Shown here one piece after another: positions 10,737 to 57,500 of a stretch of DNA of 64,000 nucleotides (position 1 is its first letter; the number at the start of each line of letters is the position of its first letter). Below the pieces are notes generated by a model, which had not been told where the DNA came from, searched no databases, and was given only the letters and a program-made list of their open reading frames with translations. A program made the translations under genes and the position numbers. Source of the stretch: Elusimicrobiota bacterium (GTDB lineage: Bacteria > Elusimicrobiota > Elusimicrobia > F11); the NCBI GenBank assembly GCA_046153645.1, contig JBJXGI010000044.1, positions 513-64,512 on the forward strand, written 5' to 3'.

Positions 10737-10929
10737 AAATATGGTCAAAGGTTTTTTTCGAGATGTTGTTAGCCGAATTCGACCGCAATAAAGGAATGAC
10801 TACGCTTGCATCAAAATCTTTCTCACCAATTTATCTAAATCTTCTAACTTTTGGATTTGCTCGTGATCAAACTCGATCACCAAAGGATTTGGCGTATCCG
10901 TTAACATGAGGTAGGTTCGAAAACGGTCT
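10737..10929. repeat. Direct repeat copy 2 (AbiEii 3'-end relic plus true 3' end of the giant gene)
   Basis: Matches 9925-10118. Confidence 0.95.
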
Positions 10930-37900: not shown

Positions 37901-40900
37901 AATCAAGCACCAATTTTTTATACGCAGCCGTATCATCTTCAGAACTAAAACTTTTAACAAATTGCCTCAGTTTATTCCGAATATGTTCATGCAAATCATC
38001 GGCATCCTTAGGAGTAGAGGAGGGGAGTGGAGATGAAGAATTAAGACGGGCCTGTAAAACATCTAAGTTTAAACTTGTATTTTGGGACCCAGGGTCAGTC
38101 GTGGAATTAGGATTTTGGTCAGAATCAATGAGCCGTGCCCACACATCCCAAAACACGTCTTCTGCCATCGCGGGAGAAACAGATAACCTCTCTTCATAAC
38201 TACCCCAAGAAACAACAATAATTCCAACAAGAGTCTCAAAATCTTTTTCATTTTCTGAAACCCGCTTTAAGTATTTCAGAATCGTTGAACGAAATATCTT
38301 CACTTTTTTTTGGGAACCATCATCTTGTTCAATAACGACTACTTTCGGATACTGTAATTCATCAAACAGTTTGACAATGGCACTAGCAAATGACCTTACA
38401 TCCCCGGAGGATGACCAATTTTTAAAAACACTAATATTTATATTTGGAAATAGTTCTATAAGGATTCTAAGGTTTTCTAATGTGAGAAAAACGGAGTTCT
38501 CTTCTTTTAAATTATTTTCTTCAAAAAAGGTATTAAGATGTTTAATAAGTGTTTCTACGTTGAAACGAGAAGTGGTTCCATTATTTTTGACCAAAAAACC
38601 AAGAAGTTTAGTAACAACACGTTTGTCATTCGCATCCGTGGTATTAAAAATATGTGGCCACAAATTAAAATTCATACGCAATATAGATCCTATTTGGGAA
38701 CCCGCTCCATTCTTGTCATCCGGATCTAAGGCATTAACCAACGAGGAAAGAATTATTTTTAAAAAATCTTTTTGATCTGGGTCTGTTATATCGAGGACAT
38801 AAGGCTCTAGTTGACGAAAAATTCTATGCAACAGTGCTGCACCCAATAACCGAACTTCTTCAACTTCATTTTCTAAAACGATTTTTATTACTTCTCTAAC
38901 AAGTCTCTTATTCTCGGATTTTGTCCGATCAAAAAAAGAATTATGAATTCCAGTAAAATAATGAATGAACTCAGTTAGCAGTGCTTTGTTTGATGTTTTA
39001 TTGGAACTAAAATTTTTAATATATTCTTCAAGTTTAGATTGAATTTCCTTCTCTTCTTCTTTAGAAATTGTAGCGAAGGGAAACCAATTGGCAACAGGCT
39101 TAATCCATGGAATATTTTGCGCTAATCGTTTAATGGCCCAAACCACTTGGTTATAAATGAAATGAATCCCCATCGACAAAACAAAGGACCAAATTCCTAA
39201 AGTATTGATCACACCTGGAATTAAGAAGACTCCACCAAAAACGAAACCAAGCCCCATTAAAAAATATTGTTGATTTCGACTGTAACCTGTGTGATCTTTT
39301 CCGAATTGATAGGCCATCGCAAGATTGAGAATGATTCCTAACGTCATCACAACAGGAGATGAAAACAATAATGGCCCCAAAATAACCATGAGATAAACGG
39401 GGAGTTGATAAATAAATTCTTTAACAACGACCCACAATTCACGCTTGAGTTTATATTGATCGTTCGCCGGGTCATCAGCTTTTTGAACCACCAGGTTAAC
39501 CAAAATCTTTTGATGAACAATTCGAACGGGCGCTATCAAAATATTTTTAAGAGTGCCCAATCTTGAGAGAACACTGGCCATGGCTTCAACATAAGCGCTT
39601 GGGCTTGTTATGTTTTGTTTTTTAGGATTGATAAAAAGTTTTTCACCTAAAAAAAGACGATCCAGCGGTGTTTTTTCTCTAGCGAAGGCACTAAGATAAG
39701 CGCTAGCGCCAGCTTCATCAACTTTGGTTAATTTGGGAGTGACAACAATATAAGGGATATTTTTCTTTTTAAAGAGCGCTGTGATGTGGGGCGTGTGGAA
39801 GCCGCCAACAATAACGGCAGTTCCTGGATTTTGCCCTCTCCCTAACCCTCTCCCGTAAAACGGGAGAGGGGAGGGTGAGGGGTTTTTAAGGAGTTTCCCC
39901 ACCATCTTCTCACTGCGAATATCCGCTTCCACATAAAACCGCTCAAAAGAGGTGAGGTTTGCAACACCCTCCTCACCCTGACCCTCTCCTCCCTTTCGGG
40001 AGGAGAGGGGAATTAATTTTTTGTATTTTTCCCATTCGCTGGCTGTCAGGGAGAAATGAATCAGTTTTTCAACCAAGAGAAGATATTCACTTTTAGCGAC
40101 GATTTTTTTTTCTAAATCTGTTTTTGCTAATTTTTCAACAATAAAACTCTCTAGTTTTTCTAAGGCCTCAAATAATTTATCGGCTTTTATTCCATCGGCA
40201 AGACCGACATAACGAATGTAGGCATCGAATGCGGGGGTCTGAGAAAGATGAATTTCTTTTCTCTGGCAAAGATTTTTTAATTCTTGATAATAATCTCCAA
40301 AACCTATTTGGCCGGCGCGGTAAGAGACACTTTGTGCTAAAAATAAATTCATTTCTTCTTGGTTTAAAGTTTTAGCTAAACGTTCAACAACTTGGCGGCG
40401 CTCTATTTCTACTTGTTTAAAACGAAGCGCTGCTTCCATTTCATAAGCGGATAAAAACTGTTCTAAGGTGGGATCAAAAAAATCATCTGCCAAGGCACTT
40501 ATTTTCTGGGTATAAAAACCCAAACTTATTTTCCCTGAGTGGTAATTTTCTCGCAACGCATCAAACTCATTAAGGCTCTTTGGAAAAACCTTTCTTTTTT
40601 CTTCATTTAATTTATTTTTTTGTAATTGTAGATCTCGTTTTGTTTTTTCTTTCAATTTTTGTGAGGAAAGATAGGCATTCACATTAAGATCATAATGCGC
40701 TTCATCATCAATTCCAACAAAAGCGGGTGGTTCCACTTGACTCATAATGCCCACATAAGAGGGCGCAGCCAGACGATTGTTTTTAAAAAAAGAAGCCATC
40801 ACAAAGGACACCACTTTTTTGTCTTCTATTGAACGAAAAGCGGAGAAATCAAATTTTTCAAAAGCCCCCTCTACGCCCACCATGTTCAATTGGCCCTGAT

Positions 40901-41339
40901 CAATCAAGGTCTGCAAAATTTCAGTCATATTCGTTTGAGCTTCGGAATTAAGATGGATATCTTGTAAAAGGACAACAGGGGCAGAGTTTTTGTTATTTTC
41001 TTTTATGGGCGAGGGAGAATAAACTTCTTGAATTATTCCCGCTGTTAAAGGAATTTTCTCTAAAATATGTTGAAGCGGTTTGGAAATTTTCCCATTCCAT
41101 TTTTTTACAGCGGACATTTTTTGAGATGAAAGAGCTAAATCTTTACTCAGAGATGGAAGCTGGGTGAGCACATTGGAAACAGAGGAAGGAACAGACGCAA
41201 ATTGCTGAGAAGAAGCGGACGCTTTTTTTCTTTCACTCCATAAATCACTTTCTCTTTTAGACGCGAAAGCCACCTGTGTAGTGAAATAAACAAGACATAA
41301 AAAACCTGAAAAGACCCTCTTCCCAAACATGATTTGCAT
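10800..41339 (-). CDS. Giant 10,179-aa multi-pass membrane protein: signal peptide, conserved N-domain, two CPBP-like TM modules, six AAA+ modules, HExxH domain, vWA, eight TM-HExxH/helical repeats
   Basis: Uninterrupted 30.5-kb ORF; GPSGEGKT, GYQGGGKS, GETGVAKT Walker A motifs; HETGH; DVSGS...ITDG MIDAS; repeated PINxxN/GP/HExxH units. Confidence 0.9.
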   Translation of the reverse strand: MQIMFGKRVFSGFLCLVYFTTQVAFASKRESDLWSERKKASASSQQFASVPSSVSNVLTQLPSLSKDLALSSQKMSAVKKWNGKISKPLQHILEKIPLTAGIIQEVYSPSPIKENNKNSAPVVLLQDIHLNSEAQTNMTEILQTLIDQGQLNMVGVEGAFEKFDFSAFRSIEDKKVVSFVMASFFKNNRLAAPSYVGIMSQVEPPAFVGIDDEAHYDLNVNAYLSSQKLKEKTKRDLQLQKNKLNEEKRKVFPKSLNEFDALRENYHSGKISLGFYTQKISALADDFFDPTLEQFLSAYEMEAALRFKQVEIERRQVVERLAKTLNQEEMNLFLAQSVSYRAGQIGFGDYYQELKNLCQRKEIHLSQTPAFDAYIRYVGLADGIKADKLFEALEKLESFIVEKLAKTDLEKKIVAKSEYLLLVEKLIHFSLTASEWEKYKKLIPLSSRKGGEGQGEEGVANLTSFERFYVEADIRSEKMVGKLLKNPSPSPLPFYGRGLGRGQNPGTAVIVGGFHTPHITALFKKKNIPYIVVTPKLTKVDEAGASAYLSAFAREKTPLDRLFLGEKLFINPKKQNITSPSAYVEAMASVLSRLGTLKNILIAPVRIVHQKILVNLVVQKADDPANDQYKLKRELWVVVKEFIYQLPVYLMVILGPLLFSSPVVMTLGIILNLAMAYQFGKDHTGYSRNQQYFLMGLGFVFGGVFLIPGVINTLGIWSFVLSMGIHFIYNQVVWAIKRLAQNIPWIKPVANWFPFATISKEEEKEIQSKLEEYIKNFSSNKTSNKALLTEFIHYFTGIHNSFFDRTKSENKRLVREVIKIVLENEVEEVRLLGAALLHRIFRQLEPYVLDITDPDQKDFLKIILSSLVNALDPDDKNGAGSQIGSILRMNFNLWPHIFNTTDANDKRVVTKLLGFLVKNNGTTSRFNVETLIKHLNTFFEENNLKEENSVFLTLENLRILIELFPNINISVFKNWSSSGDVRSFASAIVKLFDELQYPKVVVIEQDDGSQKKVKIFRSTILKYLKRVSENEKDFETLVGIIVVSWGSYEERLSVSPAMAEDVFWDVWARLIDSDQNPNSTTDPGSQNTSLNLDVLQARLNSSSPLPSSTPKDADDLHEHIRNKLRQFVKSFSSEDDTAAYKKLVLDFVSYFSAIPKDFFGIEKLENQRIVREAINIILKNKNEDIGSFGAFALGQISQYVDNYVFDLNDSEDQIFLKTICLSFAKALDLFFKEAKYEVNRKFTLDVLMLCWHSLLSVINFSDFNERQLIKTVTIELTKGIDDRLMSKEIKKEVILTLENSFDLYEQRKIFLTMENFRVLIKALPKYNVELLGFWSTSNDVQAVSKIIHEAIVGIHSTKEVVISKEDGSLKVISISSQKIVDLLKRSSEREDKYDLLMRSLVMAWGAYERDHEKHPEMAEDAFWQVWAMLIDQDESSDSLLVSGSDGLGLNLGLAHNNSGSSSVNVPGVDELVQKYRRGNSRSFADLLGSFIFYRNAFFSFLYLELKIVFKEAPYFMPVYLLALASSAWPSDTTILIGLFAHAFMSFLFGRAHTLGRDGKPNTTKQKIFIGTVAFIFGASLFLPGVISVVGLSGILVLMGLQLLYNLTVGLLKKLSIVIPFIKPLTGWLPFLTIGGMGGLDPVELIRKSREAARKSRIAALRAKSTLTPSEAAELAALQAEGGETRTAIAALGLGSSIRAAVEQMASGDKNIWNDPVKLKSLVKFGEYQSSDAMIGIMYVLLNETPNLQTLGLLFDTFRGIVKGDIVEGESHFHGVVSIYLSTFFEGVAPSELSPKDIEAIQDMSVELFRAAEKLAAQSGNLSENAVTIRELIRFYVDFSNYYLRNANQGAHNLGDVIRQFILTAENIYGRVLVSPQARAEFTNKLFEMLRTTSKGATVIFRAQQLKQFSSENAAQTIANIMNFSDYENTEPERQDNLSPFERAIDARILRSRQSSRPLLLVTGSDDVMIVEDRLATLDKQDGRTVRFSASAFAKRKDLFGMLMPNKQMSVSERERLVLQAQTENGKILQALKVIFDVSDDAKNLIDEMNSHLGEIIKDDAVRSSLAVYLANPEAWQDTMSWRDGFLVEMARQAARDLDMQHTIIIDNAEALPGRVRVLLNPVLWEKQADIPDRREKVQIPPNVQFIFTMDQDSVVRDDSFLNRVLMQFTSSFNLSKAGYLVQKTGVTAEVEAQLFQLYHSLKKTSWQDAPDWNFSDLVHIGWRVAGRLKDKAGLDPAAIFSQEVEAYLKLNLSNRKDWLTLSQMLNELGIKRNGSIPALTFSAEGNIVFDGVEIVSNDQIKQHHQNFPSDSVEKALNHLYGFALTEMENRILSQLARDWKYGIRSVEIEGPSGEGKTEISRVFSKIINLKISERTINAATDLGDLRGRFVSDRNGGIQFEEAAYVSELEEGGYAHIFNEINTSPESRVYQWLYPETARQAVKTLPEFAAQESAGSSVRKVKPSENNMRFFTVNSEGTAGREPRPRRVAATVPRYRLGFDPNALPGLARQFFESDSDVAPHASTYAPILAEVHRAVWSAQNELNSIETTQPVTRRFLFRVIERMKSIKKKESSLTLQDIFIRAVGDIYCSSWRDLNEKNTVLKIVNDVLVRHGMPNIKENGEATLQLALLEDSPTMVFQDASGSSGGDVVMDLIGKIDSKAEKVRVPLSFYHDNKQWVGTWMPRGSNQNALAQLLQKLGGMRFQKLDYEIGLIGTFILQARLSSERVYVVLENYARLNKKIMPLLNEFLQTGELEALSTRLTQDNADELFELIVKEIKDRSVNFEKLTEGYPGPISVDDLKSDPTMRLAFARWFYTHQPKNLKWVATASSQEEIKIGGPELDRFAAVNISEKQGKEWVEKSVEGWLEKLNLGGINPKYKETLIEKVSHILQAYRDAASGGEAMYENLRLSINDLETLFSELFLEQKAHEKNETDFKKDLDKISYYTLSIGLPPSIRKKFDLAKEKMDHPEKNIGYRKEAGRDHWIFFADGISIETLYPVSEPEPTGFLAPTENHVRQMASSIIAWRHQRWSVIEGYQGGGKSALVQTMAQRMGVPHYDQLMFDGIDLGGFLGRLSTKKGELILTAQTDDDGKYLLDFLRAYQNGGAVNLDEGAVGTSSQKVIEFLCSLAALPSIDLSHYHPGYPGPPIKRHKNFRLFITQNPAGITQDRLPIPYEADSRAHKIWAENTLSFEDALLIINHHLGIVKAQISTPDLQPMKELMANIHLGFLAHHPNKDDLSPRQLILMSLGLKDAISQNKTSAAELKRAVFRGAMVAYFERLSLQERKTVLAKKDTATKSFNDLVEEFSTEWKGPLTIQPNNFGGVQIAESSGKTNVDKKEIRFTEEMESQNGALWSLAYGLSLGMPVALQEEVGADALDLVRKFAHQTNRELEILWSHGEMKRSHLVEALVPLFNANFNDYGVREQSVGREFKQALGFLASHMLTQDEYNRLSREPQHPEKILFFHMMDAIPERQRVILNLFLSRMGENRTLTIGDAEGRPVEYILPPWVGLVVSAPVNHRFSSPFMNRFLPVRVEPFSKDETRRLLLKRYPYIDDREFDWLWQIKEKAVELDTSGGFDVRYYFSPEDIFKLASAIQELKRRSWRPLKYDPLYYVLRAVQLIYLGALKDDDLKKFERDVVFNLLRDIFKKPIQEELISVSELSRYYRLLKQEVFEDFSNLQTQTVRKEVQLSDLKEGQDLPLPNGFRFRYSNKSEGKITLTTPARSYNLNMNALRNKLKVTDEITAYLNDSGDSIVVEYKILKRIGAFDLPQDPWNNDRALPVHETPTRAFMEMTPEHTIFLAEIINAWQPRSDKTQSPSEARSPRVVMVNGETGVAKTAGMVNAALITGTPLYVLNSYEDMRIADVFMSMGIEQGKIQLNIKELLARIGQIRPKGSDRSWQKIRVPGKTTSSRALVVWDEANVATALTHPLAPLFRGEKRFDFYYMGETWEVEIEEDVLLALTFNPAETYDSRQAFPSEIAGYAHKFWPANPARYPDPQLKTILTELTRRGVRSVQEALERRTTGSTETPEQEGYVPVSRQVIPSSHPDTKDMSSEDESEFLKGLKRYPNPDINDEWLRAIREQLQRAASSAEKEEPKKDDKPTSPMEAPSQPAVIENFKTNYDLDALKLAAATFRSGSIDFVEFGNRIVAPFLQAISDFQFTNEKPENFHIAQSIFNIAGQIDGALENAFRSIANIYNSEKGSIVEFNENIMIIRRILAQPGRDIFLLLKLVGESRDQYEMPYLFIKAEKIINHFSQWTPEHYDVIGIAADSPLRTQPLPQALVLENAPSPGLLGYWEGEFAVAFQNDTRAAIPETVPLDEALAWTVFHETGHMIDQRRYRAEAFPIPDNIELNPMLFPLIFVSPNNYLEFIRKWLKKIRDPEHVYGQAMKGILNGLRKICLERNEDGSETLEPGAGDEWITDAFESEKVDRVIDMLKKLPPTKVNKLAAEIYQKRSVYLNTAKPGSQEVTQGSGDGWERDFTAGVDKGYQQRVVGKVEKKVTVDSKNKKDRPRFTPGPKKDRGDGKGEKEKGPQTGPEKPSDSPDVKTGDSLLDISKIPAGLLEKFLKLFAGAPSEVRFLSGDGDEIDLDELAATRGNSDIFIRVESTRGRTRGHFAVTVDVSGSTHGDLNRTFVDMASQFVSLFHRAAVKNQEVKTGLAVHGDSYRSLLDPKDSHKAGKVKEALRILDQYPAAEENNFESVIRSIIDKHKKRDGLPILEIVITDGQVDCSESLLEEAHQKGIDIVIVGYNTPEVIKFPKSLNLPKGTDAQGMLKVLLSIAELKARRRDGKLPLEKNLGERLQLSSNENSSGEPKPINLSNSFVVLFATLLISGLIGYFMYSSSGAFGWNTIVMLAAVPVLLILQMALVLFIRVYDDINKKNLPNAPPLMMLWGTAAYSFREADFVQYDPESKAYQLNPALYYFLAPPAKDLSIFNKAKHYFLSFVIRTLLHILLISLHERIHAKNNGSEWTSYGIQMGLWISGIAFILFISQGLSWTSGFMIGALFVVISTVLTLMAMIREKDINSNKLHQFIETLSQPGIAHELIEGAVVTLMLKLRDKKELSDKELEVLSTLFDSFPADFYSKDPEVVKEWLGTLAINSKNKNAHLRFGSLSVLERILSKISGPFYLNSDSNFIKEKIQYLVPGLDDDSNEILFARLYIVQRFLYDAPADLFAISDDLLVETVIQFVAKNLDLFNPGSEREAIFEYLLSRVPPEFFKTDDPKKSALFVQVFDLLMNELKFKSSYPMTAHINPLIYLLKARPSLLTKKNLQSIIRTVKEYERVFQFSPEHIELIQPFKDLAPSEEVRSAAGAIIEALNIPDVFHVNITDLNGETKSLYFDFPKISAMLWKSAQNDRDFDLVFQTLQLAWNAKNNPREASPTAAENSFWITIAHLVYANRTSQDKNNNANPINIRNAAAAFGVTSALVLLVYGIGVGFGVNPSREGTTLLLVVPVFFLIQMLLTVFLQVAAKVGKNVLPTGPPIFVLWGYPARSFPGTNFIQYDPYHKVFQLNPVLHYFLGPAPKTASFPKIIIHAVVGFSFRFLIFVLAVRFHERLHAAGWRNELVVFGVQPLFLFGMFGGVVYAYLYAPMLFVIFPVIILIIIVFRDMAEDDLEILKKYTPQEYTSLTNASSLRKEIIRFLVLILNNDDKELRLASFIILRTYLRESGESLFNENDKELVKELLRNLVAHFIRSKDPNSNQVSNILSLLPEGFFVESDTKFAEEIITAVAENLKYENVFIRRKTIDLLGDLLFQLTGYFDDLNKETITGMTKWYENSPYDNLDQYKMLMLLQSKVTKKEIKQEIKQFQDKFFSKEIFHFFITSSSFFQFDPEDNITSSQLEPFQLFASQPDESNIPPFANVIVKVLRSQSSVEDKIEFFEMMKAFSQDDDSFDELSQVLGMTWRAYITQKISSEITAEDFFWNVVSSLIERYRSSQLSAKTNSADPINIRNAATAFGVTLALVLLVYGIGVGFGINPSREGTTLLLVVPVFFLIQMLLTVFLQVAAKVGKNVLPTGPPIFVLWGYPARSFPGTNFIEYDPYHKVFQLNPVLHYFLGPVPKDASTIEKLIHFAVGFTLRFVLFALAVPLHERLHAAGLRNELVTFGAQALVMVGVFSGIVYAFPGISTLFIIFPVIVLLAMLIYKKLKNNDIKILGKYLWLTIAPKLRKEATLILVSKLAEGNEKIQLESLEVLRANKNIFSRGLWNSSDMKLLKEILRNWGVHISQIDGIEKPKYRLSYELLSQFVAGIPNGLFQDTDQKNVEKLMAPFIEDLKNPNTEIRSHIIEMWGHFYFSLGSPFFGEDSKNFFKKVIDGLIWNLDKEPEIAAVSLTTLINIVSKYSYGGNDKNFIKTILKTISVMMVSREFKFSSKIELEFLGKFMSKISTNVFNEEDASFIREIFDLWVQYFEKNKNDVLIRNNKIRSDFIRIIDISSGDKLKTFFNKNLKYFSRFDSWMTNNNSGVLVEKAPQGYFDELDEETIKELAAFNFIEIKYKNYSQIMMLARLRTKVTNEKIKKEIQNVFDKLFTRENIRLFMDTFSENVDLALQPWQKDLMLLMESQSDEDDAPLLIKTILKVSEDQDSVIRHKDFMEMLINVSKNPGEFDVMVRALSMAWRGYEEEKKSSKVAAEDFFWNSVSSLIELHRSSQLSSNENSTNPINMKNAASAFGVTLALALLLYGLGVGFGLNPSREATALLIGIPVFFLIQMFFTIFLQVGAKIGKDRLPTGPPIFVLWGYPARSIPGTHFIEYDPSIKVFQLNPMLHYFLSAAPKNSSRVRKVIHASIGFTLRFILFSLAVPLHERLHAAGIKNELVAFGAQALVLVGVFTGIIYTFPNITTLFIVFPSIVLLSMLIYKKFKEDDLNIHIKYLKSPIISKLLLMEIIRIWISNLDDLDEKNRLKILELSSRYVNPISGSRFDPDAKMLIKELLWNCAAYYNRISGISGEERRLSYNILSRLILFLPNRLFTIDDQKFVEDLILPLLADFKNPDKAVRYQALEIWSNFFQKLSVSFFNQNKNLLEKIVDALIWDIEKGGDFKAISELMSLLSEYTYERNDKDFVKKVLRKMSSVLAPQQFNGSIQFELTFLGKFLSKVPKNVFNGEDVSFIEEIFGLWVQYFEKNWTFNSIKNDGIPLIYSFIKAINILPDEKLKEFFNNNFKYFFKFDSRTMDNLRLLLKKAPQGYLDELDEETIKELATFHSNTISYENFPQASVLTLLQSKITNEKLKKEIKKALDKLFTKENVRLFIVDHLSQNVDGGIQAWQRDFIRLIGLQPDDNSIPPFAKAIIKVLESQTSLVNYKDFLEMLVALSKDPEQFDALVQSLSMFWRGYEQGKISSEKAAEDFFWDVVSQLIARYKSPGLSEDPTKPNPINLKNSFAAFGVSAAIAAVAVLMAWGVYGWRAAPETEMLFKILLMPAILFFMLFGVVSGFSITGKFFEKYLPRGPSQLLTLWGVPVFPVSKTTFIQYDSAVKVFQVNPIFYYFLSPLPQNASPFIKVGHRFIGFSILVVLNLLLVPIHEKAHVIGEGNEFTVYTVQFLLWLVLVGSVLYLPNIIPWFSSITVLALFFGLASLLSVITIINSGNEKKNGEILSGIGLQHANFSLQKVIITVYMNSLQKTKGDDLKRALTGLSAWAYNSDAENYFNQNDKDLLKKTIEYLLENSDSNNRITIVSFLSSLMPKIPIEYFGKDDNDFISRIINVMVQWPIDLDGSLMLEDFLPLLSPDVFDKDNEDLFHGVLKFLISVMKKNTGNNDSDKLTHERAFICLASVFETAPAGYFKVSDKVVFGEIFAYFTGEMAPILASDSDLYFSVIRNTLTADPSLLTMENLRLFILVTPLNTSLLYSTERLGSVLVLFKVIASSDDVKMLADSMIGALWEQSFNDDPRLQIKFEDVYEMIQTASKNKDTFSQLAQLLIIARNAYLEDIDKGKSRQVANDAFWRVIAALVKMGQASQEASSEDNSNPINLKNSAAAFGVISALAFAVWGIGVGLLDWNPSGRGLVLLLVVPLFFLMQMFLVIGFMIATKVGKSFLPTGPPIFILWGYPARSVPGTSFIQYVSDGKVFQLNPVLHYFLSDAPKDASSFRRLIHFAIRLTLHFILFALAVPLHERFHGFFHSDYWEDEFFAFGFQVLMLMGMLSGMVYVCPDIATLFIIFPSIIILFMLIYRNIKKDDLEILRKYMGLRGTSPILRKEMIRVLVSNLSDKNEKVQLESLQVLRFNQNVISHTLFNFNDKELIKELLWNWITHLKNGPMVQGYDLGYDLFFKFLSSLPDKLFDKNDQKFIEELMATVLEDLENPDPLIQTRAMSILESFSKKLNDSFFNKNNEDFLRKVMGDLTRNLDKRKNNDFRPYNILKQIIESNSFDDINKDLLREIVKRFSVLLVDKEFDGTVQMELELLSAFMPKVSENIFNGESDEDVDFIQEIFGLWVQYFEKNWRYNSIENLGIPLIHSFLKTIDISPDEKLKIFFNDNFKYFFKFDARTRDNLLLLIEKTPPGYFDGLDDETIKDITAFDSNTISYENHPQVEMLTRLQTKIVKEKLKREIQEALDKIFNRENVRLFVSSFAQNLDHHFRPWQRDFIRFMGSQSDENPVSPFANAINQVLNNQSSLVNNKDFIEMLIDLSKDVNSFDLLIQTLSTTWRGYIDQKKSSEEAAEGFFWDVVSKLIAAHKASQNSSDATKPNPINLRNSAAAFGISLALAMVAVGLAWGVNGWRLGGMEIGLFTLMLLPAVFFSILFGVVLGFFVSGRLFEKYLPRGPSPLISLWGVPAFPVSGTHLIQYDPAIKVFQLNPILHYFLSPPSKNTFLLKRIIHRLIGFFILVLLNLLLVPFHEKSHVKGEQSEWTVYLLQFMLWIILAGSIIGLPAQVSWLTSSSVFMGLLGMAALLSVVTMIQSGRQKRNARIFKIIDLTRFFHDNKSLTKAIIKTLMNNFQQADESVLEENMRLTSVILSNINNNYFDKDDKGFLKIVIENLLNRSNSEYRKGINLFLMRLFEKIPAKYFTREDKEFILKVTESVILNLNDDPQVVLLKDFFKLVDKDFFVPSNKDLIKKIVVFLSDAMKAQSEETLLSRNLLNQSSNALDLLLGKLPNGFFDVDDQIIFGDLLSHLMTKMPGNFSSPVSLEVKGLGTLFRVCPSLLTLENLRLFIVSIPLTGWNSRGVGRSNLANILVSFYLHSPSEEVKSVADAIKGALYENLNTLPIPLPEPSPGEEKLSINFEEVAAMIWKYAESKINFSQLAQALIMLRNGFLVDVKTSSVAASNSFWYAISTLVERHKASQRAVNPINLKNSLAAFGVSIVIALVAVLIAWSVYGWHAEPVIKGLLVLLVMPALCFFVLLGVVFGFSVSGKLFEKYLPRGPSSILTLWGVPVFPVSGTNFIQYDPKVKVFQVNPIFYYFLSPLPQNASSFKKVGHWFVRLYILVVLNLLLVPLHEKLHQYGIKNELKVYLWQSISWIILGGFVLGLPAVIPWFSSGMVLILLFSVAALLSVITIIKSGNEKRNIEIFSGIKFSRANLVLQKMIVSSLMNRLQKTTGDDFNIILSILDDWVSNFVQGNFFNENDKDLLKKTIKYLLEKSVSNNRTKIVFFLLCLMPTIPREYFGKDDNEFISRTMNTLIRWPIDSDGLLMLREFFPLLSADIFDENNLVLSNNVLKFLISVIKNHSENDPASKDTQGKVVILLVDVFKTVPAGYFKVSDKVVFGEIFTTFTGKLAPWLASHPDLYSFVLRHVLVADSSLLTLENLRLFILATPLNASLVNNPERLGSVLLLFKENAPSNDAKMMADSMISALFEQVFNNNPDLQIKFEDIYEMIQQAAKNEIIFSQLAQALIIARNYYLRDIGEDKSPQVANDTFWGVIAALVEKSKASQRPAPGADDGTVLGWVKQTAATFIGFISGGKKNEVLTQVSPLLYDRDDQIQLRNLLLQVVEGTPLNLEIGQLTSSENTGTRIGNIAELVSRHLVDHPEELHQFGDLVRFVLTGEKKSGRAYFGGSLHGLMREIQNPRSEIAQNLSRPQIVVQFIGETNVKESIELARNEIKEAGKKNMPVIFRLVSKNSQIRSELEKLKASAPANVSIEIYDEKQAMNLSVAFKKGVISEDELQYSLFRFIAPASMKKEFRAFLDFSNIPQIDFKREKDRFRTYLMLTDTPNPLVIEFDHEQIQKLEDLDKLVRKILMQA
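11730..26891 (-). repeat. Eight intragenic tandem units of ~540-720 aa
   Basis: Units begin with PIN[LIM]xN at 26891, 25103, 23492, 21356, 19220, 17441, 15281 and 13481. Confidence 0.92.
39834..39882. repeat. In-frame palindromic element (CCCTCTCCC family)
   Basis: CCCTCTCCCGT-AAA-ACGGGAGAGGG at 39846-39870; encodes PSPSPLPFYGRGLGRG. Confidence 0.85.
39967..40010. repeat. In-frame palindromic element (CCCTCTCC family)
   Basis: CCCTCTCCTCCC-TTTC-GGGAGGAGAGGG at 39982-40009; encodes PLSSRKGGEGQGEEG. Confidence 0.85.
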
Positions 41340-41474
41340 GCCTAAATATACAGGAAAAGGCCGAAAAATTCACCTCAAAATCGGTTAAATTTCGATGAAT
41401 TTTTAAACCAGCCATCGATATAAAAACGCCTTGAAAAGAAGAGGTGAATTTCTTATGAAATCTTATAATTAAGT

Positions 41475-41744
41475 CTACAAACTACGCAGTAGCCGATCAT
41501 ATTCTGCATGGGCTCCCACCCAAATCCAAATAATCTCATCTTTTTCAATAATCCCTATTGCACGATATGTGATATTTATTCGAACAGAATAAATTGGTTG
41601 CGTAGAATGAATCCTTTTGAAATGAAGACTTGGATGATAGGGGTCTATCTTGAATAAAAAATAAGCCTCTTTTGCCTGTTTTCGAATTTTCAAAGGAAGT
41701 TTGGATAAAACTTTTCGAAATCGAGCAGAAGTACGTGATTTCAC
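41475..41744 (-). CDS. RelE/ParE-superfamily toxin
   Basis: 89 aa, basic; DPYHPSLHFK, YSVRI, YRAIG, WIWVGAHAEYD. Confidence 0.85.
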   Translation of the reverse strand: MKSRTSARFRKVLSKLPLKIRKQAKEAYFLFKIDPYHPSLHFKRIHSTQPIYSVRINITYRAIGIIEKDEIIWIWVGAHAEYDRLLRSL

Positions 41745-41959
41745 AATTTTTCTAGATTAAGAAGTTTTGTTTTTCCGCGATGATGTTCACTTAAAGCTTC
41801 TGCAGCCAGCCTTTCTAATACTTTTTCAGATTCAGAAAAGGATTTTTCCCAACGTCTTTCAGATTCAAGCTCAGCTAAGACTAACCGAGCAAGAGCATTT
41901 TGCTCCAACACAGGCAATTTTGAAGCCTTCGCAAAAGCTTCTTCTAACAAATGCGTCAT
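41741..41959 (-). CDS. Cognate type II antitoxin
   Basis: 72 aa, MTHLLEEAF...LPVLEQNALA...WEKSF; 4-bp overlap with the toxin start. Confidence 0.8.
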   Translation of the reverse strand: MTHLLEEAFAKASKLPVLEQNALARLVLAELESERRWEKSFSESEKVLERLAAEALSEHHRGKTKLLNLEKL

Positions 41960-42122
41960 AATTTCACCTCTTAACGAGATTTGAGAATGAAAGAATACTT
42001 CATTTCAAAAAACTTTTGTAGAGATTAAGTATCTTGAGAACCCAAACTGTGATGTAGAAGAAGTCAGAGATTCCAGTTTTTTTTGCCGATAAATCACTCA
42101 ATTTGCTAATTTCATTGTCCTT

Positions 42123-42863: not shown

Positions 42864-42867
42864 ATTT

Positions 42868-46084: not shown

Positions 46085-46095
46085 ATACTCGAGTC

Positions 46096-48425: not shown

Positions 48426-48526
48426 TTATTCTACAAGCAGAAGATTAATTCCCCATGAATTCTGTGTTAATTAGTTGAAACAATTAAAAACGCGAAAAAT
48501 ATTGATAATCATATATTTTTAAAAAA

Positions 48527-51500
48527 TCAAGCTTGCTGAGAGCCCTTTTCATGACCGCCTATTTTCTTATCCAATAAAGGCCCTCCCACTTTTGGTGCTG
48601 CGTCAATAATGTGTGGTGGCAAAATATCAACTTGCACACCAAAATTTGATTCAAGGGATTTTTTAAGTTCATCCAGGGTCTGAAGGGCTGTATTATTGGG
48701 CTGAGCACTGATGAGAACCTCTATTGTATCGGTATCATCCTCAGGAATTTTAATAGAGTCTTTATCTTGATAAAAAACTTTATATCCTGCTTTGTAGATA
48801 TCAACAAAAGTTCTTTGAACCATTTGGAGCAATCGCTCTCCGGCATTTAAATTTAAACCACTTGTCTCCATATCTTGAGAATGATCTAAAAGCGCTTTAC
48901 GGTTTAATACAACTTTAGCCACTGCGTGCGTTGATGTCTCTTGACCAGGGAGAGGGTCCCAATAAGATTTTCCATTCATTAAACTATGAGCAATAAAAAG
49001 AACATGGGTCCACTCCGCGGCTAATAAGTACGGAGGAAGTAAAGATAAGTCAACCTCTGGTGATTTTTCTTTTAATCGAGCCAACACTGTCTCTAACATC
49101 CGAGATATTCCCTCAAATTGTTTTTTAAGCGTGTCCGACTCTTTTAATGCAAAATATCCACCTGGAGTTTTTACCCCTTCTCGGTCAACAACAGCATAAA
49201 CAACATCTAAATCCGCTCTTAAAAGAGCCGCTAAAATCCAAGCCAATTGATGCCCTTTAATACGAGGGTCGAGTCTAAATTTTTGAGTGTCTACACTCGG
49301 GGGAACATTTTTGTAGCGATCCCAAATCTTTTCTAATACCTCGTCTTGAATGGGAGGATGAGCCCAATCATTTTGTGAAAAACCCAGTGCTTCTAAAAGC
49401 CAAGGCAAGTGAACCAGCATTTCACCAGAATTAAGAACGCGATTTTCCAGTTTCAAACGATCAACTTCGGCACTTTTTTCAAGCTCATGGTCGTCACGTA
49501 TATCGTTTTGGAATGGGGTACCGCCTTTCTCAAACACAATTTCTTTGATCTTAATTCGTGTATTGGGCACTTCTTTCCATCCCTCTTCTGTTTTTTCTTC
49601 TATGAAGGGTATAGGTTTTCGTTGTGTTGATTCATAAGACACTGTAAAAACAACATCTTGCCTATCAGCGGTAGCCAGTGTGACATCAACAAGAGGGATA
49701 TCAGAAAGAGTAGATGAAAGAAATTGTAATTTAGGAGATAAAACATCATTGTTATCCAAATGCATTTCAACGGCGCCCTGTTTATCTTTTTTAATGCTGA
49801 CCCCTTCAGGCAACTGAGTTTTACTTTCATCAATGAAATATTTTTTACCGTCTTTTCGTAAAATAATCTTCCCCTCGCCTTTTTCCTCATCTTTAAATTT
49901 AATGGATGAATAAACAAAACTTCTTCCTTCTCGAACTCTTACAGTTTCTGACAAACCTTGACTCGATATCACTTTTTTATTTCCTAATGTTTTAATACTG
50001 ACAGGCTGCCCATCGATATCCAAATTAAACATAAGCTCACGGTCTACTAAAATGACCATGATCGGTTTTCCAGAATCGCGGAGTATCTTTATGGCATTCC
50101 CATCAGGAACGGTAATATTATCTCCGGCTTTCACACTGGCAACCTCAACCCCTTGGTGGGCCCATTTGAAGAAATCCCCATTAATGACATGTGTAAAAAT
50201 GGCGTCTAATGCCCCCAGTGGGCGAACCCATAATTTCTCTCCTGAATCTCCAGGGACATATAAAACTCCCCCAAAACGATTTAAAAAGGGAAGCGCGCTT
50301 TGGGCTGTTGTTAAACTTAAATTAACCTGGTCTTTAAACCCTAATATCTGAATTAAAGGATCATGGTTTATATCAGCTTGAACGTAAGATTTATTATCAC
50401 GCGTCACAAGAAAACTGACAAATGATTTGGCGGCTCTCACTGGGACAAAACCCGCCCACAAAATTAAATTAAGAGCCGCAACAGAAGAAAAAATACGGGC
50501 GTTTTTAAAAGTTATCTGCAATACACCTAAGACAGCTTTAGTCAAAAATTCTGGAACCCATGGCTTACTGTCAGAAAACCGCGCCCCTGCGCCAGAATTC
50601 ATTTGAATAGAAGCCACTTTTCCTTCCGCAAAAGCTCGCTCTAATAAAACTTGTCCAGCCTCTCGCTCAGCGGGAGACAAGCCAGTTAAATCAACAATCT
50701 TTTCAGGACCATCGGCTAACTTAACAGGAATTAATTTTCCTGGCTTGTCTGGAATGCTTCCAACTAACTCATCATCTTTTATTATTTGGTTGTTACGGTG
50801 CGTTAAAATAATGCTGTTAAACTGACGCGCTGTCATTCCTAACACGGGTGGCACAGCGCGGGTAATGGCCTTTAATGCCAAATCCCATTTAAACTCAGAA
50901 ATCAATGTGGCCACCGTCACTGGTTTTTTGGTTTGAGGATCAACAATGGTGAGATCTAACAAATGAACAATTTGATGGGCTTGCGGATCTTGATGTCCCA
51001 ATAAATCAGTCTCTTCTTTTAAGAGAGGGTGAACAACTTCCGGGTTTCCATTAAAAAATTCCAAATCTTTTTCGGTGTAATGTCCGCCGGTATCAGGGTT
51101 AATGTATTTTTTTAATCGATATCTTAAATCAGGGGCCAATCGATCATGCTCTAAACCTCGTTGTTGATAAAGCACGTCTACAAAAATAGGAATGCTGGCC
51201 AAAGAACTCCCCACAAAAGCGATTGCTTCATTAAGAAGATTAATTATCCAATGAAGCGGAAGGAAAACCGTATATTTACGAACATAAAAAATTCTAAAAA
51301 GCATAAACTCGTGAGGGGCGGCTATCACTTGAGAAAGAGGGTCCGCTTTTTTCTCATTTATTAAAATGACTTTTTTATTGGGAAGAGACGGATGTAGTTC
51401 ATTTAAGAAAACGGTGTGCGATAAGCTGATTTTACGGTAGAGAGATTGCGGGTTTTTTAAATCAAGAAGCGCAAAAAGTTCAGGGTGAGATTGTGGTGTT

Positions 51501-54500
51501 GCCCCTGTTGGAAAATAATCTTGAATCCAACTAATTTTAATAGCTCCACGATATCCCAAATACCGTATTAAACGGTATTCCCCTTGAGGACCCGCGCGAA
51601 TAAAACCAATAGAGCGAAGAACCGCCAATATCATCAATCCCAATGCTTGAAAAATAAAATAAGAAACAACAAATATAATTGGGAAAATAATCGCGGAAAC
51701 CAAAATAGTTGGCGTGAAATAATACAGTAAACCCAATAACCCAACACTTGAAAATAAAGCCCCAACTGAGTTAGAAAGGCTCAAATTATTTCCAAATCTC
51801 GGCTTGGGATTTAACGCGGATATATCGTTTAAGATCGGAGAATTATTTAATCCATAAAAATCTCTATCATTTCTAAAATTCCGATACTTTGGGTCTAAAT
51901 CACGATAACCAGGGATATTTTTTTCTATAAATTTTTCTAATCTCGAACGAATTTGATCTTGAAAAATAATAAGAAAATCAATAATGAGGTGGAATGCAAC
52001 AGCTGGCCAGTAAGAGCCAAAAAAATGTTGCGCGAAAGGGTAAAACCCAAAAATCAAACCAAACTGAAGCCACGCGAATATTAAAACTTTATAACTTGCT
52101 TCCCCTCCGTTTTGCTTGTAAATGGTGTAGGCTAATTCTGCGTGCAAGAATATTATCGTCAGCAAAATCCAAAAAACATATATACCGTCAAGAGGCAAAA
52201 GATATTGCGTGATAACATAGGCTTCAAGCATCGCCCCAACCAAACCAATCCACTTAAACAATGTTGAAAATTTTCTTGTGAATTTTTGAAGCCAATCGGG
52301 AGCTTCGTCAGATATTCCATAGAGATATATGAGAGAAGCGGGGGCAACAGAGGATATATCAGAAGTCCCAGACTTTTCCTCAACAAACTTATTCAAATTA
52401 TTTTTTAGTTCTGAACGGAAAATTTTTCCGCCGCCTCTAGAATAAGTTATCGAAGGATCACGAAATATAAACTCATCTAATTGTCTGTTGTTATGGGGTC
52501 TAACTCGGCGAATAATTTTTTTCAACTCAAGAATCCATTTACTTTTTAATTCCGCTGATATTTCACTTGTTCCCATCGCATCTGAGAATAAATGATCTTC
52601 AAAAGCGATTTTTTTAAATTCGGGGTAAAGCAACGAGGTAACAGCCATCAAATTCATGACGTCTGATGAGAAAAATAAAAATAAAGAAGCAGGGTCATAA
52701 GCATCTTCGCTCTCACTATTTCCATCTTCAGCTTCAAGCTGTATTGAGAGTTGGGGTGCGGCTGTTTCTAGAAAATTAAAAACATTATCAATAAGCACAT
52801 CATATTTTTTTGCCTGATCTGCGCTCAGAGAATGCGGTTCAGAAATAATTTTTCGATCTTCATCTATTAAATCTTTGAGCCGTTTCAACCCTTCTTTGTT
52901 CAAGAGAAGATCGGAATCAGAAGAAAAAATATTTAACAAGATACGCCCCATCTCTTTTTTCCGAATTCCTGAAGTAGATAAATATTCTTTTAATAACGAA
53001 TTTAAATAAAGCATGAGCAGAACAAAATCAATTTTATTCTCTTTCTCATGGCGACTTTTAGATGTTGGCATTAGTTTAACAATGAGCGAATAAAAAATTG
53101 CTCGCAAGTGTCGAGCTATTTCAAGAGCCGATAACATCGCATGATTTGGAAATTTTTCTATTGCACGGTCTTCAATATCTAAATACTCCATAGCCTCCAT
53201 TGAATATCCTGAACCAGCCAAGGTGACAAGTGAACTACTATCTCTTACAAAAACATGCCCGCTAGAATTGTCATCAAATTGAAGCTTTTTAAGAAGAGTC
53301 TCAACTCTTGTTGTGTAACCATCACCCCACTTCTCCCATTTCCCTGCCATCGAGACCACCAATAAAGAAAAAATATAATAATCCAGAAGGCTCTTCCCCA
53401 TATTCACCAAACTTTCGCGATCTTTAGGAATTTTGTCGAAAAAACGAACAGTTTTTAACACGCCTTCAAAGGTAACTGAAGTATCTTGACGATGAGCAAT
53501 AGGCCGTCCTTTTCCACCAGCGACTAAGAAAGTCCTTAAATTTATTTCTAATTGTTCGTTGGTTTTTCTCAGTATCTTATCAGGACCATAATTCTTAAAA
53601 AAATCCAAAACATCTATAAAGTCCTGTTTATTGGGCATAGGGCTATCAGATATAACTCCATCTATCTCTTTGTGTATTTCAGGTCGAAGCGCAATAAGTT
53701 CTTCAATGGCTTTTAAACCTTCTTCAAAAATTACTTGTTGTGGATCAGGAATGGGCGCTGGCTTTTGTATTAATTTGTTTTCAAGCTCAGCAATGACTGG
53801 TAAAACAGGCGATAAGTTTCGCGAAACAAGAAATCTACCCCCTTGCTCTTTGGCCTCTGGATGAGTGGAATTTTCTTTTAATTCAAATTCAAAGAAATGT
53901 TTAAAAATATCAGCAGAATAGTCTTGCGGCCCTACCATGAGGCTTTCCATTGAGGCGCCATGATTCCATGGGGGCAAGTTCATAAAAAAATGAACCATGA
54001 CAACCCAACGCTGACTAAGCCAGGATTGACCATCTGGAACATCTTGAACTTCTTTTTTTAGAGCTGTAAGAGACGATTTTATTTCAGCTTGATGTGTATA
54101 AATAAGATCGTAGAATTCCTTTTTCATGGCGACCCAATCGCTGTTACTCTCTAACTTATTTCCTTCTAATTCATTTTGACGATAAGGAATATCCCACAAA
54201 AAAGGCTTTGCATCTAAATCTATTTCAATTAATTTGTCGTCTTTATAAGCCAAGCCAAAAAGATAGGTACCAATGGCCAGCTCCCACTCTAAAGCATTCT
54301 TCACATCACTCGCGCCTTTCTCAAGAGCCTCTTTCAGTCTTTCCAAGGCATATTTAAAAGAAACAAGGCTTGATTTAAAATCAGTGACCTCACGTGGATA
54401 AATATTCGGTTGAAGATGTGTTCCTGTAATAAAAAGAGACAATTTCTCTACTCGGTCACGATAAAGAGGGGGAAGATTGACATAACTAAAACTCAGTTCA

Positions 54501-57500
54501 TCATAACCAAGACTCGCTTGATCATGAAACCGAGTAGACAAAGCCAGTTGGAGCAGAAAAGGGACAGATAAATACCCATACAAAGGGTCCCTATGATCTT
54601 GAATTTTAATGAAATCTGGACCTTGGGGCCCTCCCCAATTTTCAGGATACTTTTGCTTTATTGTTTGTGCCAAAGAAGTGATCAATAAATCCCACTGCTC
54701 AAGCTGACGATCAGAAATACCAACTAATTTTTTATCTAAAACATAAAGGGCCAAACCCAGAAATACATCCAGAAGAGTTGTATCTCGCGGAGAGATATTA
54801 AAAGTATAAATATTCGTTTGTAACATAGCCTGAACATTTTTGGATAGGTGCGATTCAATATCTTTCAATAGAAAGTTCAAATCTATATCGGGATTCATTT
54901 GAAATTCTTCCAAGCGACCTAAGAACCCTTTAAAAACAAGATCTTCATGAACTTTAGCGGGTTGTTTTTTAATTGGCTTTACAGCAACGTAGAGTTGAAT
55001 GGCAGACCCCGTAATGTCAAATGGAACGGACGTATTTTTAACTTCAAATCCAATATCTTCAAGATCTTTTCGATTTAAAAGTAATGAGGTGAAACCGCCC
55101 AGAATAAATTTTCCACCTTCAGGTAAAACCTTGAAAATTTCTTTCGCCATATGGAGAGCAACAGCGCGGTCCGTCACTTGAAAATTTAATCCCCCAATCG
55201 CGGTTATAACTTGAGGATGACCAGGAGCTAATGCAGCGAGGTCTGTCTCCGTTGTGAATTTATGTTCAATTATTCTTGATGGAATATGTCTGATTTTATC
55301 TCCTACCTCAGAATTTCCATCAATAATGGTGTATTCAAATTTTCCGTGATGTGATTTCCTTAACAGTTTGTTGAGATTTCTGAGAAATGTACCATCTCCC
55401 CCAAAAAGATCCCAAATCTCTAAATCAGTTGATTTTTCATTTCTGAGTAACTCATAAACCACATGAAGGAACAATGGATGAATAGAAAGTTGATAAGCCC
55501 AAAAAGGTGCGGTCCATTTCCAGTTGTCCCACTTATATTCTTCGCGAACTGCACTCTCTCTTGAAGTGAGATCCAACTCCCAATCATTTCCGTTTAGGAG
55601 TGTGATAAGAGGTTCTATTTCTCTTTCTAAAAACATGGGGTCCTCAATATGAATAAGTAGATCAGACGTTGGAAAGTAAACAAATGAACGTTCAGCGTGA
55701 AAAATGATGTCGCCAATATCCGGATTATATTTAGATGTAAAAAAACGATAACCCATTACATTTCCTTCGATCATTTGTTTTTTTAATTCGGTTTCGTGCT
55801 CTTTTGTTAAATTACTTAAAGTTGATTTCGATTTCATCGATTGAACAAGACGACTAAGATGTTTTTTGATTGCTTCGGTATTATTTTGAGCAGGATATTT
55901 TCTATCTATTAATTCTCCAGAAGGGGAAATAATAAGTCGAGGTTCTTCAACAAAAACCGCATTCATGACGAGATCAGGAATTGTTTCCACCAAAAACTGC
56001 GCTGCTGTAGATGCAAGTTGAGGAATTTTCTGAAGGTTATTTCGCTGAATTTGAATCACGATAAAAAAGAAAATAAAGAATATGGTGTCGAAGACTAAAA
56101 ATTGAATGGTTTGATTCTTAAGATAAAACGTGAGAGCAGAAGCCACCAAAAAAGAGAGCGTTTTAGAAATAGCGATATCAACAATTAAATTTTTGATTTG
56201 ATTCCTTGAACCGAAAGCCATAGACAGGTCAAATTGATTAAACCGTGCTTTAACAAGCGAGTCTGAACCTTCAACAACCGTTCCTCCTTTAAAAATACCG
56301 GTTAAAAGAGACTCAGCCCATTTTTTTGTTTTTTGAAAACTAGCCATGGTTATCAGCGCTCTTAAAAATGAACCTTCTATAATCGGCGCTTTGGCCAAGA
56401 AAAGTTTATCCCCATCAAATAATTTATTTAGCGGTGTTTTTTCCTGCGCAAAAGCGTTCAAAAGGTATTCTGATCCATCGACAGCAGTCACTTTTGTCAT
56501 TTTAGGGGTCAGCGAAATAACGCTGTAGCCTGCTGTTGTTAAAAAATTTTCTATTCCAGTTGAGTGGAAACCGCCTGTGACGAGAATGGGGCAAGACGAC
56601 GTACTTAGTCCTTTCATACTAAGAACGCCTTTGCCTTCACTAAGTACGTCTTTTAAAATAAGTTTCGCCATCTTCTCATCTCTTATTTCCGCTTCCTCAT
56701 AAAACCTCTCGAAAGCTGTTAAATCCAAATTATTTAAATCTAATTTCCATTTTCTAATTTCTAATTTCTTCTCCTGGTATTTCACCCACTCTTCACGCGT
56801 CAGAGAAAAGGCTGTTAACTTTTTCACTAAGCGAAACCATTGAACGTGACCACTGTATTCTTTTTCCTGAGTGGTATGAGACAGTTCTCCGTAAATTTCT
56901 TGTTCTAATTGGCTTATTTCTCTAAAAAGTTCTTCCCCTTTTATCTTTTGTGATTGGCCAAGATATTCAAAATATTTTTTTAGTTCACACTGAGGGTCTA
57001 CCTTGACTCCTTTTTTTTGGGCTAAACCTTGTAACATTCCATAAAAGTCAGAAGGGCTTAAGTCTCCGTTTTTTAACGCCATTCCAGCAGTGGTAAAAAT
57101 TTTGGTTTCTTGAGGAGAGAGCTTATGCCAAATCTGCGCAATAAAATCTGTTCGTTCTTGTTCAATTTTTTTGATTTGTAATGTTTTTTCTGCTTTATAA
57201 GCTTCTTTAAAAAGAATCGTTTGTTTGTGTTGTGGGTGCGCCCATTTGGCTAGCGTTAAAATATACTCCCCTAACGACAATTCTTTATTGTTATAGCGAC
57301 TCACCCAATCGTCAAACTCAATTAATTTTTTATTGTTTAGTTCACTCCGGGTCTTAATTAGGCGGTTTTCTTCTTGTTTGATTCTGTTTTCAACTTCCTC
57401 TTTTATCTTACGGATATTTTGGTAGGCCTCGACATTCGCGTGGTAATGTGTTTTTTCATCAATCCCGATGAGTTGTATTTTTCTTTCAGGGTGGCTTAAA

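Follow-up and report, generated by a model that had tools for sequence, protein, structure and literature searches.

We analysed a 64,000-nucleotide stretch of DNA (hereafter the window; contig C86, JBJXGI010000044.1, positions 513-64512) from a metagenome-assembled Elusimicrobiota genome (GCA_046153645.1; 2.63 Mb, 39% GC, 105 contigs, completeness 99.7%). The window contains two long minus-strand genes of 10179 and 3165 codons, here termed the giant gene and the paralogue, whose products share a head domain (31% identity over 568 residues, E 5e-74). Two loops of this domain hold short repeats: S1, bounded in both proteins by EW.KY and L..FE.FY, and S2, bounded by EKM..L and GGFH. The giant gene has a G/C-rich palindrome in each loop, and the paralogue has a run of heptamers at S1 and an inverted repeat of another type, which we call type C, at S2 (Table 1). 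We consider it probable that all four derive from short repeat DNA able to form hairpins, as in-frame copies or as remnants of such copies, accommodated in two disordered surface loops of an exported domain.

Each of the four repeats lies where a sequence-only reading of this DNA had placed it, and both genes carry them in the same two homologous loops, between the same conserved motifs. In the giant gene, the arms of the S1 palindrome (39982-39993/39998-40009) are 12 nt long with a 4-nt loop, and those of the S2 palindrome (39846-39856/39860-39870) are 11 nt long with a 3-nt loop; the 12-nt arms at S2 of the paralogue (56598-56609/56639-56650) are 29 nt apart, and complementarity is 100% in all three pairs. 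Folded as single-stranded DNA and compared with dinucleotide shuffles, the three palindromes gave z-scores of -5.9, -4.7 and -4.2, and 0, 0 and 1 of 200 shuffles folded equally well. The period-7 array at S1 of the paralogue (56739-56769; 4.4 copies, 83% matches, Tandem Repeats Finder score 48) folded no better than many of its shuffles (z -0.8; 38/200 equally good), i.e. it is a tandem repeat, not a palindrome.

Table 1. Genes, head domains, loops and repeats in the window (positions in the window).
Feature	Position	Strand	Description or basis
Giant gene, member of the head-domain family	10800..41339	minus	Open frame, 10179 codons/aa; N-terminal translation
Head domain of the giant protein, ~570 aa, signal-peptide-like start	39630..41339	minus	Translation, alignment, family search, AlphaFold2 and VIA-align
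Giant-gene loop S1, 22 aa, KKLIPLSSRKGGEGQGEEGVAN	39957..40022	minus	Alignment; model residues 415-436
Triplex-motif variant with 12-nt blocks, giant S1	39967..40009	minus	Sequence, folding
Giant-gene loop S2, 27 aa, KNPSPSPLPFYGRGLGRGQNPGTAVIV	39807..39887	minus	Alignment; model residues 460-486
Symmetric BoxC/TMECO-like element (two C-blocks, hairpin, two G-blocks), giant S2	39834..39882	minus	
Paralogue gene	48527..58024	minus	Open frame, 3165 codons/aa
Head domain of the paralogue	56387..58024	minus	Alignment, family search
Paralogue loop S2, 26 aa, KDVLSEGKGVLSMKGLSTSSCPILVT	56576..56653	minus	Loop extraction
Type C palindrome, paralogue S2	56598..56650	minus	Two direct CGTACTTAGT-type arms and one inverted arm
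Paralogue loop S1, 18 aa, QEKKLEIRKWKLDLNNLD	56723..56776	minus	Loop extraction
Period-7 tandem run, 4.4 units, paralogue S1	56739..56769	minus	Tandem Repeats Finder; genome matches

The head domain occurs in 48 open reading frame (ORF) pieces of the genome, corresponding to about 46 genes, and 45 of these could be aligned across both S1 and S2. The two window genes, which the sequence-only reading had treated as a pair of paralogues, are indeed homologous but are only 2 of this much larger set. The same reading had described four frame-preserving inserts. Frame is preserved, but trivially so, as it would be for any sequence within an uninterrupted ORF. In addition, loop lengths are nearly equal in the two genes (S1 22 versus 18 aa, S2 27 versus 26 aa), and the inserts become visible only against the other paralogues. 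Over all 45, S1 spans 7-50 aa and S2 9-44 aa, with medians of 16 and 15 aa. Across the 45 paralogues, strong hairpins were confined to lengthened loops. Among the 24 long S1 loops (at least 16 aa), nine had an inverted-repeat score of at least 8 and nine a folding z of -3 or below; among the 15 long S2 loops (at least 21 aa), the numbers were 11 and nine. The 21 short S1 loops and 30 short S2 loops gave none by either measure.

Inverted repeats are frequent in the head domain as a whole. In 70,299 nt of head-domain DNA there were 56 perfect inverted repeats with a stem of 9 nt or more, compared with 14.4 in codon shuffles; 17 were at S1 and nine at S2 (26 together). Elements also occur at three more sites in the domain, which in the giant protein are close to residues 112, 199 and 287. 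Paralogues C49, C29_46151, C10 and C18_4034 have elements at three or four of these head-domain sites (~112, ~199, ~287, S1, S2), and their close relatives have none. For GC-rich inverted repeats with a stem of 10 nt or more, the density was 1.74 per 10 kb in head domains, compared with 0.89 in DNA outside ORFs of at least 200 aa, 0.16 in the remainder of these giant genes and 0.13 in other ORFs. Coding and non-coding DNA were distinguished here by stop-to-stop ORFs of at least 200 aa, with Pfam searches for four of them.

The distribution of the elements among the paralogues is scattered. A tree was built by a quick search from 42 full-length paralogues with the loop columns excluded and six partial rows omitted; 13 of its 39 inner branches lacked support. 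On this tree, parsimony required a minimum of nine changes for the nine triplex-like copies at S1, three for three copies of type E, five for six copies of type C at S2, four for four copies of type B and three for three copies of type D, i.e. roughly one gain or loss per element occurrence. The two closest paralogues, which share 56% identity over 625 columns, differ at four of the sites that carry elements.

The giant-gene palindromes (CCCTCTCC) belong to a dispersed family with the consensus CCCTCACCCT(G/A)ACCCTCTCCC-loop-GGGAGAGGGG. Genome-wide, there are 33 perfect CCTCTCC..GGAGAGG hairpins: 13 in genes of the head-domain family (12 of them in the head domain itself), three in frame in housekeeping genes and 17 in non-coding DNA or 5′ leaders, where assignment to a leader rests on inspection of start codons. 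The elements are thus not peculiar to the window, and most homologous loops proved to be short and non-palindromic. The housekeeping genes concerned are of the DFP/CoaB type (two copies) and a dihydroorotate dehydrogenase gene (one copy). The former locus (L028, contig C28:17216-17335; Pfam DFP, 2e-58) has a pair of canonical TMECO motifs, inverted relative to each other and ~50 nt apart, in frame near the C-terminus; in the latter (L029, contig C82:18781-18814), the triplex copy is in frame at about residue 215 of the DHO_dh domain (Pfam 1.8e-75, residues 52-351).

On sequence grounds, we assign the giant-gene palindromes to the BoxC/PIT/TMECO G/C-rich triplex motif, as variants of it. The TMECO pattern published by Holder et al. 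(2015; PMC4666352) is CCCTCNCCC N3-6 GGGNGAGGG N3 GGGNGAGGG. In its strict form it has 20 matches in the genome, five of them in head domains of other paralogues, and neither window element is among the matches: the S2 element fits a loosened pattern only (7-nt first loop), and the S1 element has 12-nt blocks. Both share the three-block architecture of a C-rich block, its complement and a mirror G-rich block after a 3-nt loop. In gene sense, the S1 element consists of the C-block CCCTCTCCTCCC, the loop GAAA, the G-block GGGAGGAGAGGG, TCA and the mirror G-block GGGTGAGGAGGG, and shares 91% identity over 46 nt with the copy at S1 of paralogue C29_77734. The S2 element reads CCCTCTCCC-GTTTTAC-GGGAGAGGG-TTA-GGGAGAGGG. 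In agreement with the assignment, a blastn search with 39826-39892 gave matches in 5389 of 5426 E. coli genomes, at a median of 11 places each; the one place inspected, which is intergenic between tkt and ypfG, has the same C-blocks and contains the 21-mer CCCTCACCCTAACCCTCTCCC.

Like the E. coli motif, the elements of this genome combine a C-block with a complementary and a mirror G-block, occur as inverted pairs and have no known associated transposase. The differences are in location and form. The motif is described as strictly intergenic, with no known function or means of spread, and all 23 copies of E. coli K-12 lie between genes (Holder et al., 2015; PMC4666352), whereas both window copies lie inside the 10179-codon frame and 16 of the 33 genomic hairpins are inside genes, 12 of them in one domain family. 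The window copies are also variants, one with 12-nt blocks and the other of symmetric form, its first loop being 7 nt long and its linkers free of stops. In the library searched for accounts of BoxC or triplex repeats read in frame, none described BoxC inside genes, although the supplementary tables of Holder et al., which could list intragenic copies, lay outside the search.

Translation appears to filter the triplex copies. Of the six frames of the motif, at least five are used by one copy or another, and two contain stops. In the stop-prone frame with the C-strand as sense, all three copies (giant S2, C79 and C67) have a stop-free 2-nt linker; among non-coding copies, 18 of 22 have TAA, TAG or TGA at that linker. 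Similarly, all three copies read as GRGLGRG (giant S2, C79 and C49) have GGGAGAGGG, where the consensus GGGTGAGGG would give TGA. The giant S2 element belongs to this stop-free subtype, which is common to the S1 loops of paralogues C79, C67 and C49. The S1 elements of C79 and C49 are identical at 40 of 40 positions, and their flanks differ.

The type C palindrome of the paralogue (GACGTACTTAGT) has relatives as well, but in S1 and S2 loops only. All seven occurrences of its 10-mer CGTACTTAGT in the genome are in these loops, in five paralogues. An nhmmer profile of six type C copies gave 15 matches at E ≤ 10, all 15 in S1 or S2 loops of seven paralogues, with the proviso that the profile contained some conserved coding flank, which favours S2 sites. 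The full element, found at S2 of C23, consists of two direct arms spaced at 21 nt and, after them, the same two arms inverted. One of these four arms is lacking in the window copy, whose second direct arm (56618-56627) has one mismatch. Type C arms are nucleotide-identical, third codon positions included, in paralogues that are 35-42% identical as proteins. Because the pattern was not found in 39 of the 40 relatives searched (the one match was in G008), we regard the family as young and lineage-specific, yet it is present at both S1 and S2. At locus L032 (contig C23:17491-18779), type C palindromes that are 96% identical over 26 nt are present at both S1 and S2; the head domain is split there between two overlapping ORFs (17491-18195 and 18168-18779), possibly as a frameshifted pseudogene.

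The heptamer run at S1 of the paralogue agrees at 28 of 30 positions (E 1e-5 in a search of the genome) with a single arm of a palindrome that is AT-rich and heptamer-periodic. This palindrome begins directly 3′ of tRNA-Val on contig C100, and further copies are present on C100, C19 and C35 and at about 8219-8265 of the window. The window copy has a period of 7 (5.3 units, TTCTATT) and is intergenic between divergent ORFs at 7456..8097 (minus) and 8459..9121 (plus). The run at S1 is likely a one-armed remnant of such a palindromic repeat; its AT-rich, low-complexity sequence keeps this assignment short of certainty.

The loops also house 'SSPNV'-type hairpins (CGTCATCCCCGAATG...), which are dispersed in the genome, a further triplex-like hairpin of G/C type (CCTCCCCAC...), CCAGGAA-type heptamer arrays (type D) and, at S2, long palindromes rich in AT (type B). 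For types B and D, blastn-short at E ≤ 0.01 gave no copies beyond the loops of the paralogues. Three type B copies keep a hairpin of ~21 pairs with two compensatory pairs, and the type B S2 loops of C29_77734 and C18_4034 have a recognisable peptide counterpart in another genus (L004, with perfect 19-nt arms), so the symmetry of this palindrome appears to have been kept over a long time (loci L004, L038 and L042).

A search for the head domain found it in every one of 11 genomes belonging to the same family, and in 22 of the 41 relatives searched. A scan of species-representative genomes confirmed 299 relatives, and all 75 loci retained from it are from Elusimicrobia/Elusimicrobiota assemblies. 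Among 19 homologues from relatives and the 75 from other assemblies, S1 again holds unrelated hairpins. In the 75, strong S1 inverted repeats were found in 18 of 28 long loops compared with four of 47 short ones, and the S1 hairpins often have heptamer-periodic arms (L080, L115, L085, L070, L076 and L097). At S2, five of 74 loops were long and two had hairpins. S2 is thus seldom occupied in other genomes, and its heavy colonisation is therefore a feature of this one.

The sequence-only reading had suggested permissive loops or hotspots that are repeatedly colonised by unrelated repeats, and the 45 paralogues bear this out on a much larger scale. In the explanation that we find probable, the elements arrive repeatedly, in keeping with their scattered distribution at about one event per occurrence, and would survive only where 8-35 extra residues are tolerated, the frame is kept and no stop is read, as the stop-free variants in stop-prone frames indicate. 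They would then be read through as Pro/Gly/Ser-rich loop segments, as frames intact for up to 10179 codons suggest, and subsequently decay, in line with the degenerate copies observed. Part of the spread may have been from loop to loop and not from intergenic copies, as suggested by two lineages that occur in loops only; a replication- or repair-linked template switch at hairpins could be the copying route, although this is a guess. We favour repeated colonisation together with some loop-to-loop copying, because hairpin density in head domains exceeds that of non-ORF DNA and two lineages are restricted to loops.

Several points weigh against such an explanation. Tolerance alone fails to account for the density of GC-rich hairpins in head domains. 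The type C lineage is confined to S1 and S2 loops of this genome, and the stop-free block pair of the triplex variant is likewise restricted to these loops. Long S1 and long S2 loops also co-occur (13/15 versus 11/30; Fisher p 0.0018, kinship ignored), and a kin-aware test of this co-occurrence had four supported pairs only and was underpowered. The count of independent events depends on a quick tree, with a third of the inner branches (13/39) unsupported, and translation of the loops is something we infer. No empty-site allele was found in a scan of metagenome contigs with the giant head domain (267 pattern matches, none confirmed). Nor was a mobilising enzyme found: Y1_Tnp (PF01797) had no match in the genome, in a search whose control found PF01797 in six of 14 known genomes. 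Set beside MITEs, which combine terminal inverted repeats with a target-site duplication, the elements are palindromic throughout, and no direct duplication is visible in the flanks of the listed triplex-family copies. Finally, contigs of independent assembly stop at the repeats, with loose ends at 39834, 39872, 39971 and 56735-56772.

The sequencing data that contain the stretch are four DNA runs of one study, and no RNA run is listed among them. In their contigs, a 2-nt omission at 39855 probably stems from other copies of the motif, and a contig carrying the tRNA end aligns at the heptamer run with its loose end at 56735. A joint from 39809 to 39900 skips 90 nt in contigs of two of the four runs; its shorter side is 30 nt with unknown letters between, and it was not counted as an empty site. 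Assembly breaks at the repeats have truncated some family genes and may have produced chimeric joins, and the end of contig C29 (90996-91021) lies within a motif copy identical at 26 of 26 positions to the giant S2 hairpin. Assembly artefact as the whole explanation was rejected, since the frame stays open and the flanks are collinear with the 45 paralogues.

A more far-reaching explanation, possible but in our judgement doubtful, is that S1 and S2 are true hotspots, supplied by a copying process through which small palindromes travel between the loops of a single gene family. In that case, type C and the stop-free triplex subtype would be mobile elements that reside inside genes only and are adapted to being translated. 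Together with the heptamer arrays, their turnover would continually reshape an exposed loop beside GGFH in the head domain of giant surface proteins, or switch it.

The hairpins could instead be selected as DNA or mRNA structures, e.g. pause sites, antisense terminators or recombination signals joining a conserved head to different bodies, with any folding sequence being kept. Unrelated hairpins do recur at the same two positions here, and at S1 in other genera, at a density above that of non-ORF DNA; the giant S1 element scores as terminator-like on the antisense strand, three type B copies keep their ~21-pair hairpin with two compensatory pairs, and the BoxC/TMECO motif has been linked to local rearrangement (Holder et al., 2015; PMC4666352). 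However, an S2 hairpin is lacking in 30 of the 45 paralogues and a strong S1 hairpin in 36, some of these being genes of 3000-3800 codons; occupancy differs between sister paralogues, and many copies are decaying. S2 is seldom occupied in other genomes (five of 74 long, two with hairpins), and three type B sequences are too few to establish covariation. We regard selected structure as improbable. The version put forward by the sequence-only reading, selected mRNA hairpins near the 5′ end of very long transcripts, is not supported, as such hairpins would be expected in most paralogues but most lack them, genes of more than 3000 codons included, and the hairpin sequences vary by gene.

Less probable still is that the repeats are contingency loci, in which an exposed loop carries unstable palindromes and heptamer arrays (7 is not divisible by 3) that switch giant surface proteins on and off or diversify the loop, as simple-sequence repeats do in phase-variable adhesins. 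The family is large and exported, heptamer-periodic arms occur at S1 in other genomes, and period-7 arrays are enriched in the loops, which hold seven of 101 arrays genome-wide, and four of the 21 with at least 3.5 copies, in 5,172 bp or ~0.2% of the genome. Against this, the units in the paralogue are imperfect (83% matches) and few (about four), making slippage inefficient; none of the 45 aligned paralogues is a frame-shifted 'off' copy broken at S1 or S2; and contigs of the four runs, which hide rare variants, held no length variant at 56739-56769. That there was no insertion at all, i.e. that the loops are old and vertically inherited with palindromy arising from peptide selection or by chance in low-complexity DNA, is very unlikely: the loops of the two window genes are near-equal in length and the type B peptide shared by C29_77734 and C18_4034 with another genus marks that insert as old, but peptide selection cannot produce reverse-complement symmetry such as that of the type C arms, the second of which is the reverse complement of the first, and neither the identity of these arms in divergent proteins and the failure to find the pattern in 39 of 40 relatives, nor the 40/40 identity of the C79 and C49 elements between differing flanks, nor the excess of inverted repeats over codon shuffles (56 versus 14.4) fits with it.

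In-frame colonisation of two loops by hairpins is a variation on the known theme of selfish DNA inside genes. To our knowledge, in-frame 'selfish' palindromes are textbook material for Rickettsia only. The analogy with Rickettsia palindromic elements drawn by the sequence-only reading is apt for the way of working, not as membership of the family. Those elements (Ogata et al., 2000, as described in PMC10969869) are ~150 bp long, encode a conserved peptide per family and occur in many unrelated genes. As there, palindromes lie in frame in coding genes, are compatible with the protein fold and fall into several families per genome; here, by contrast, they are 25-76 nt long, without a family-specific peptide, comprise at least five sequence types and are concentrated in one paralogous domain, where two loops take most of them out of a total of five sites. 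REP/REPIN sequences with RAYT (PMC3116915) are also short imperfect palindromes, often in inverted doublets and in tens of dispersed copies, but are extragenic, whereas many copies here are inside genes and no Y1_Tnp gene was found. The nearest likeness for the heptamers is in another phylum.

Cyanobacterial STRR sequences have a heptanucleotide periodicity and are accompanied by very small, apparently mobile, hairpin-associated repeats, as here. Elhai and colleagues are said to have described these heptamer repeats together with small dispersed repeats in 2008. What the present analysis adds is the family-wide census, additional repeat types, the loop-restricted lineages and the comparison with non-ORF density. 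A single genome offers ~90 homologous target loops (45 paralogues, two loops each), ~30 independent gains or losses and at least five repeat types, including gene-only lineages, and so constitutes a natural experiment on repeat movement without a transposase, filtering by translation and the origin of new protein segments. A caution for practice follows as well: these repeats interrupt the contigs of such genomes, and the GC-rich 'PLP..GEGQGEG' segments that gene callers will encounter come from repeat DNA and are not conserved protein motifs.

The head domain starts with a signal-peptide-like segment, and its invariant residues, numbered by the first sequence of the alignment, are Q101, D102, H104, E132, G133, G487, G488 and H490. 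In an AlphaFold2 model of the giant head domain (mean predicted local distance difference test score, pLDDT, 77), S1 (415-436) and S2 (460-486) are predicted as coils between confident elements, with pLDDT below 50 at residues 424-431 and 468-476; they flank one confident helix, and the strand bearing GGFH comes after. The nearest folds by VIA-align were ChaN (Z 9.8; 194 residues aligned, root-mean-square deviation 6.4), HopBA1 (8.5), BcR135 (7.4) and EreC (7.2), middling scores that are compatible with a ChaN/HopBA1/erythromycin-esterase-type likeness. Foldseek with the model against PDB gave nothing at E ≤ 0.001, and Pfam on both N-termini gave a weak PAH_ZNF598 match in the helical insert only and no TIKI, ChaN or erythromycin-esterase-like family. 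Rfam (E-value mode, 39500-40400) returned for the palindromes sub-threshold microRNA and snoRNA look-alikes alone, far from the gathering score. On the plus strand, the S1 hairpin of the giant gene together with GAATTAATTTTTTGTATTTTT (39982-40019) has an intrinsic-terminator-like score, antisense to the giant gene.

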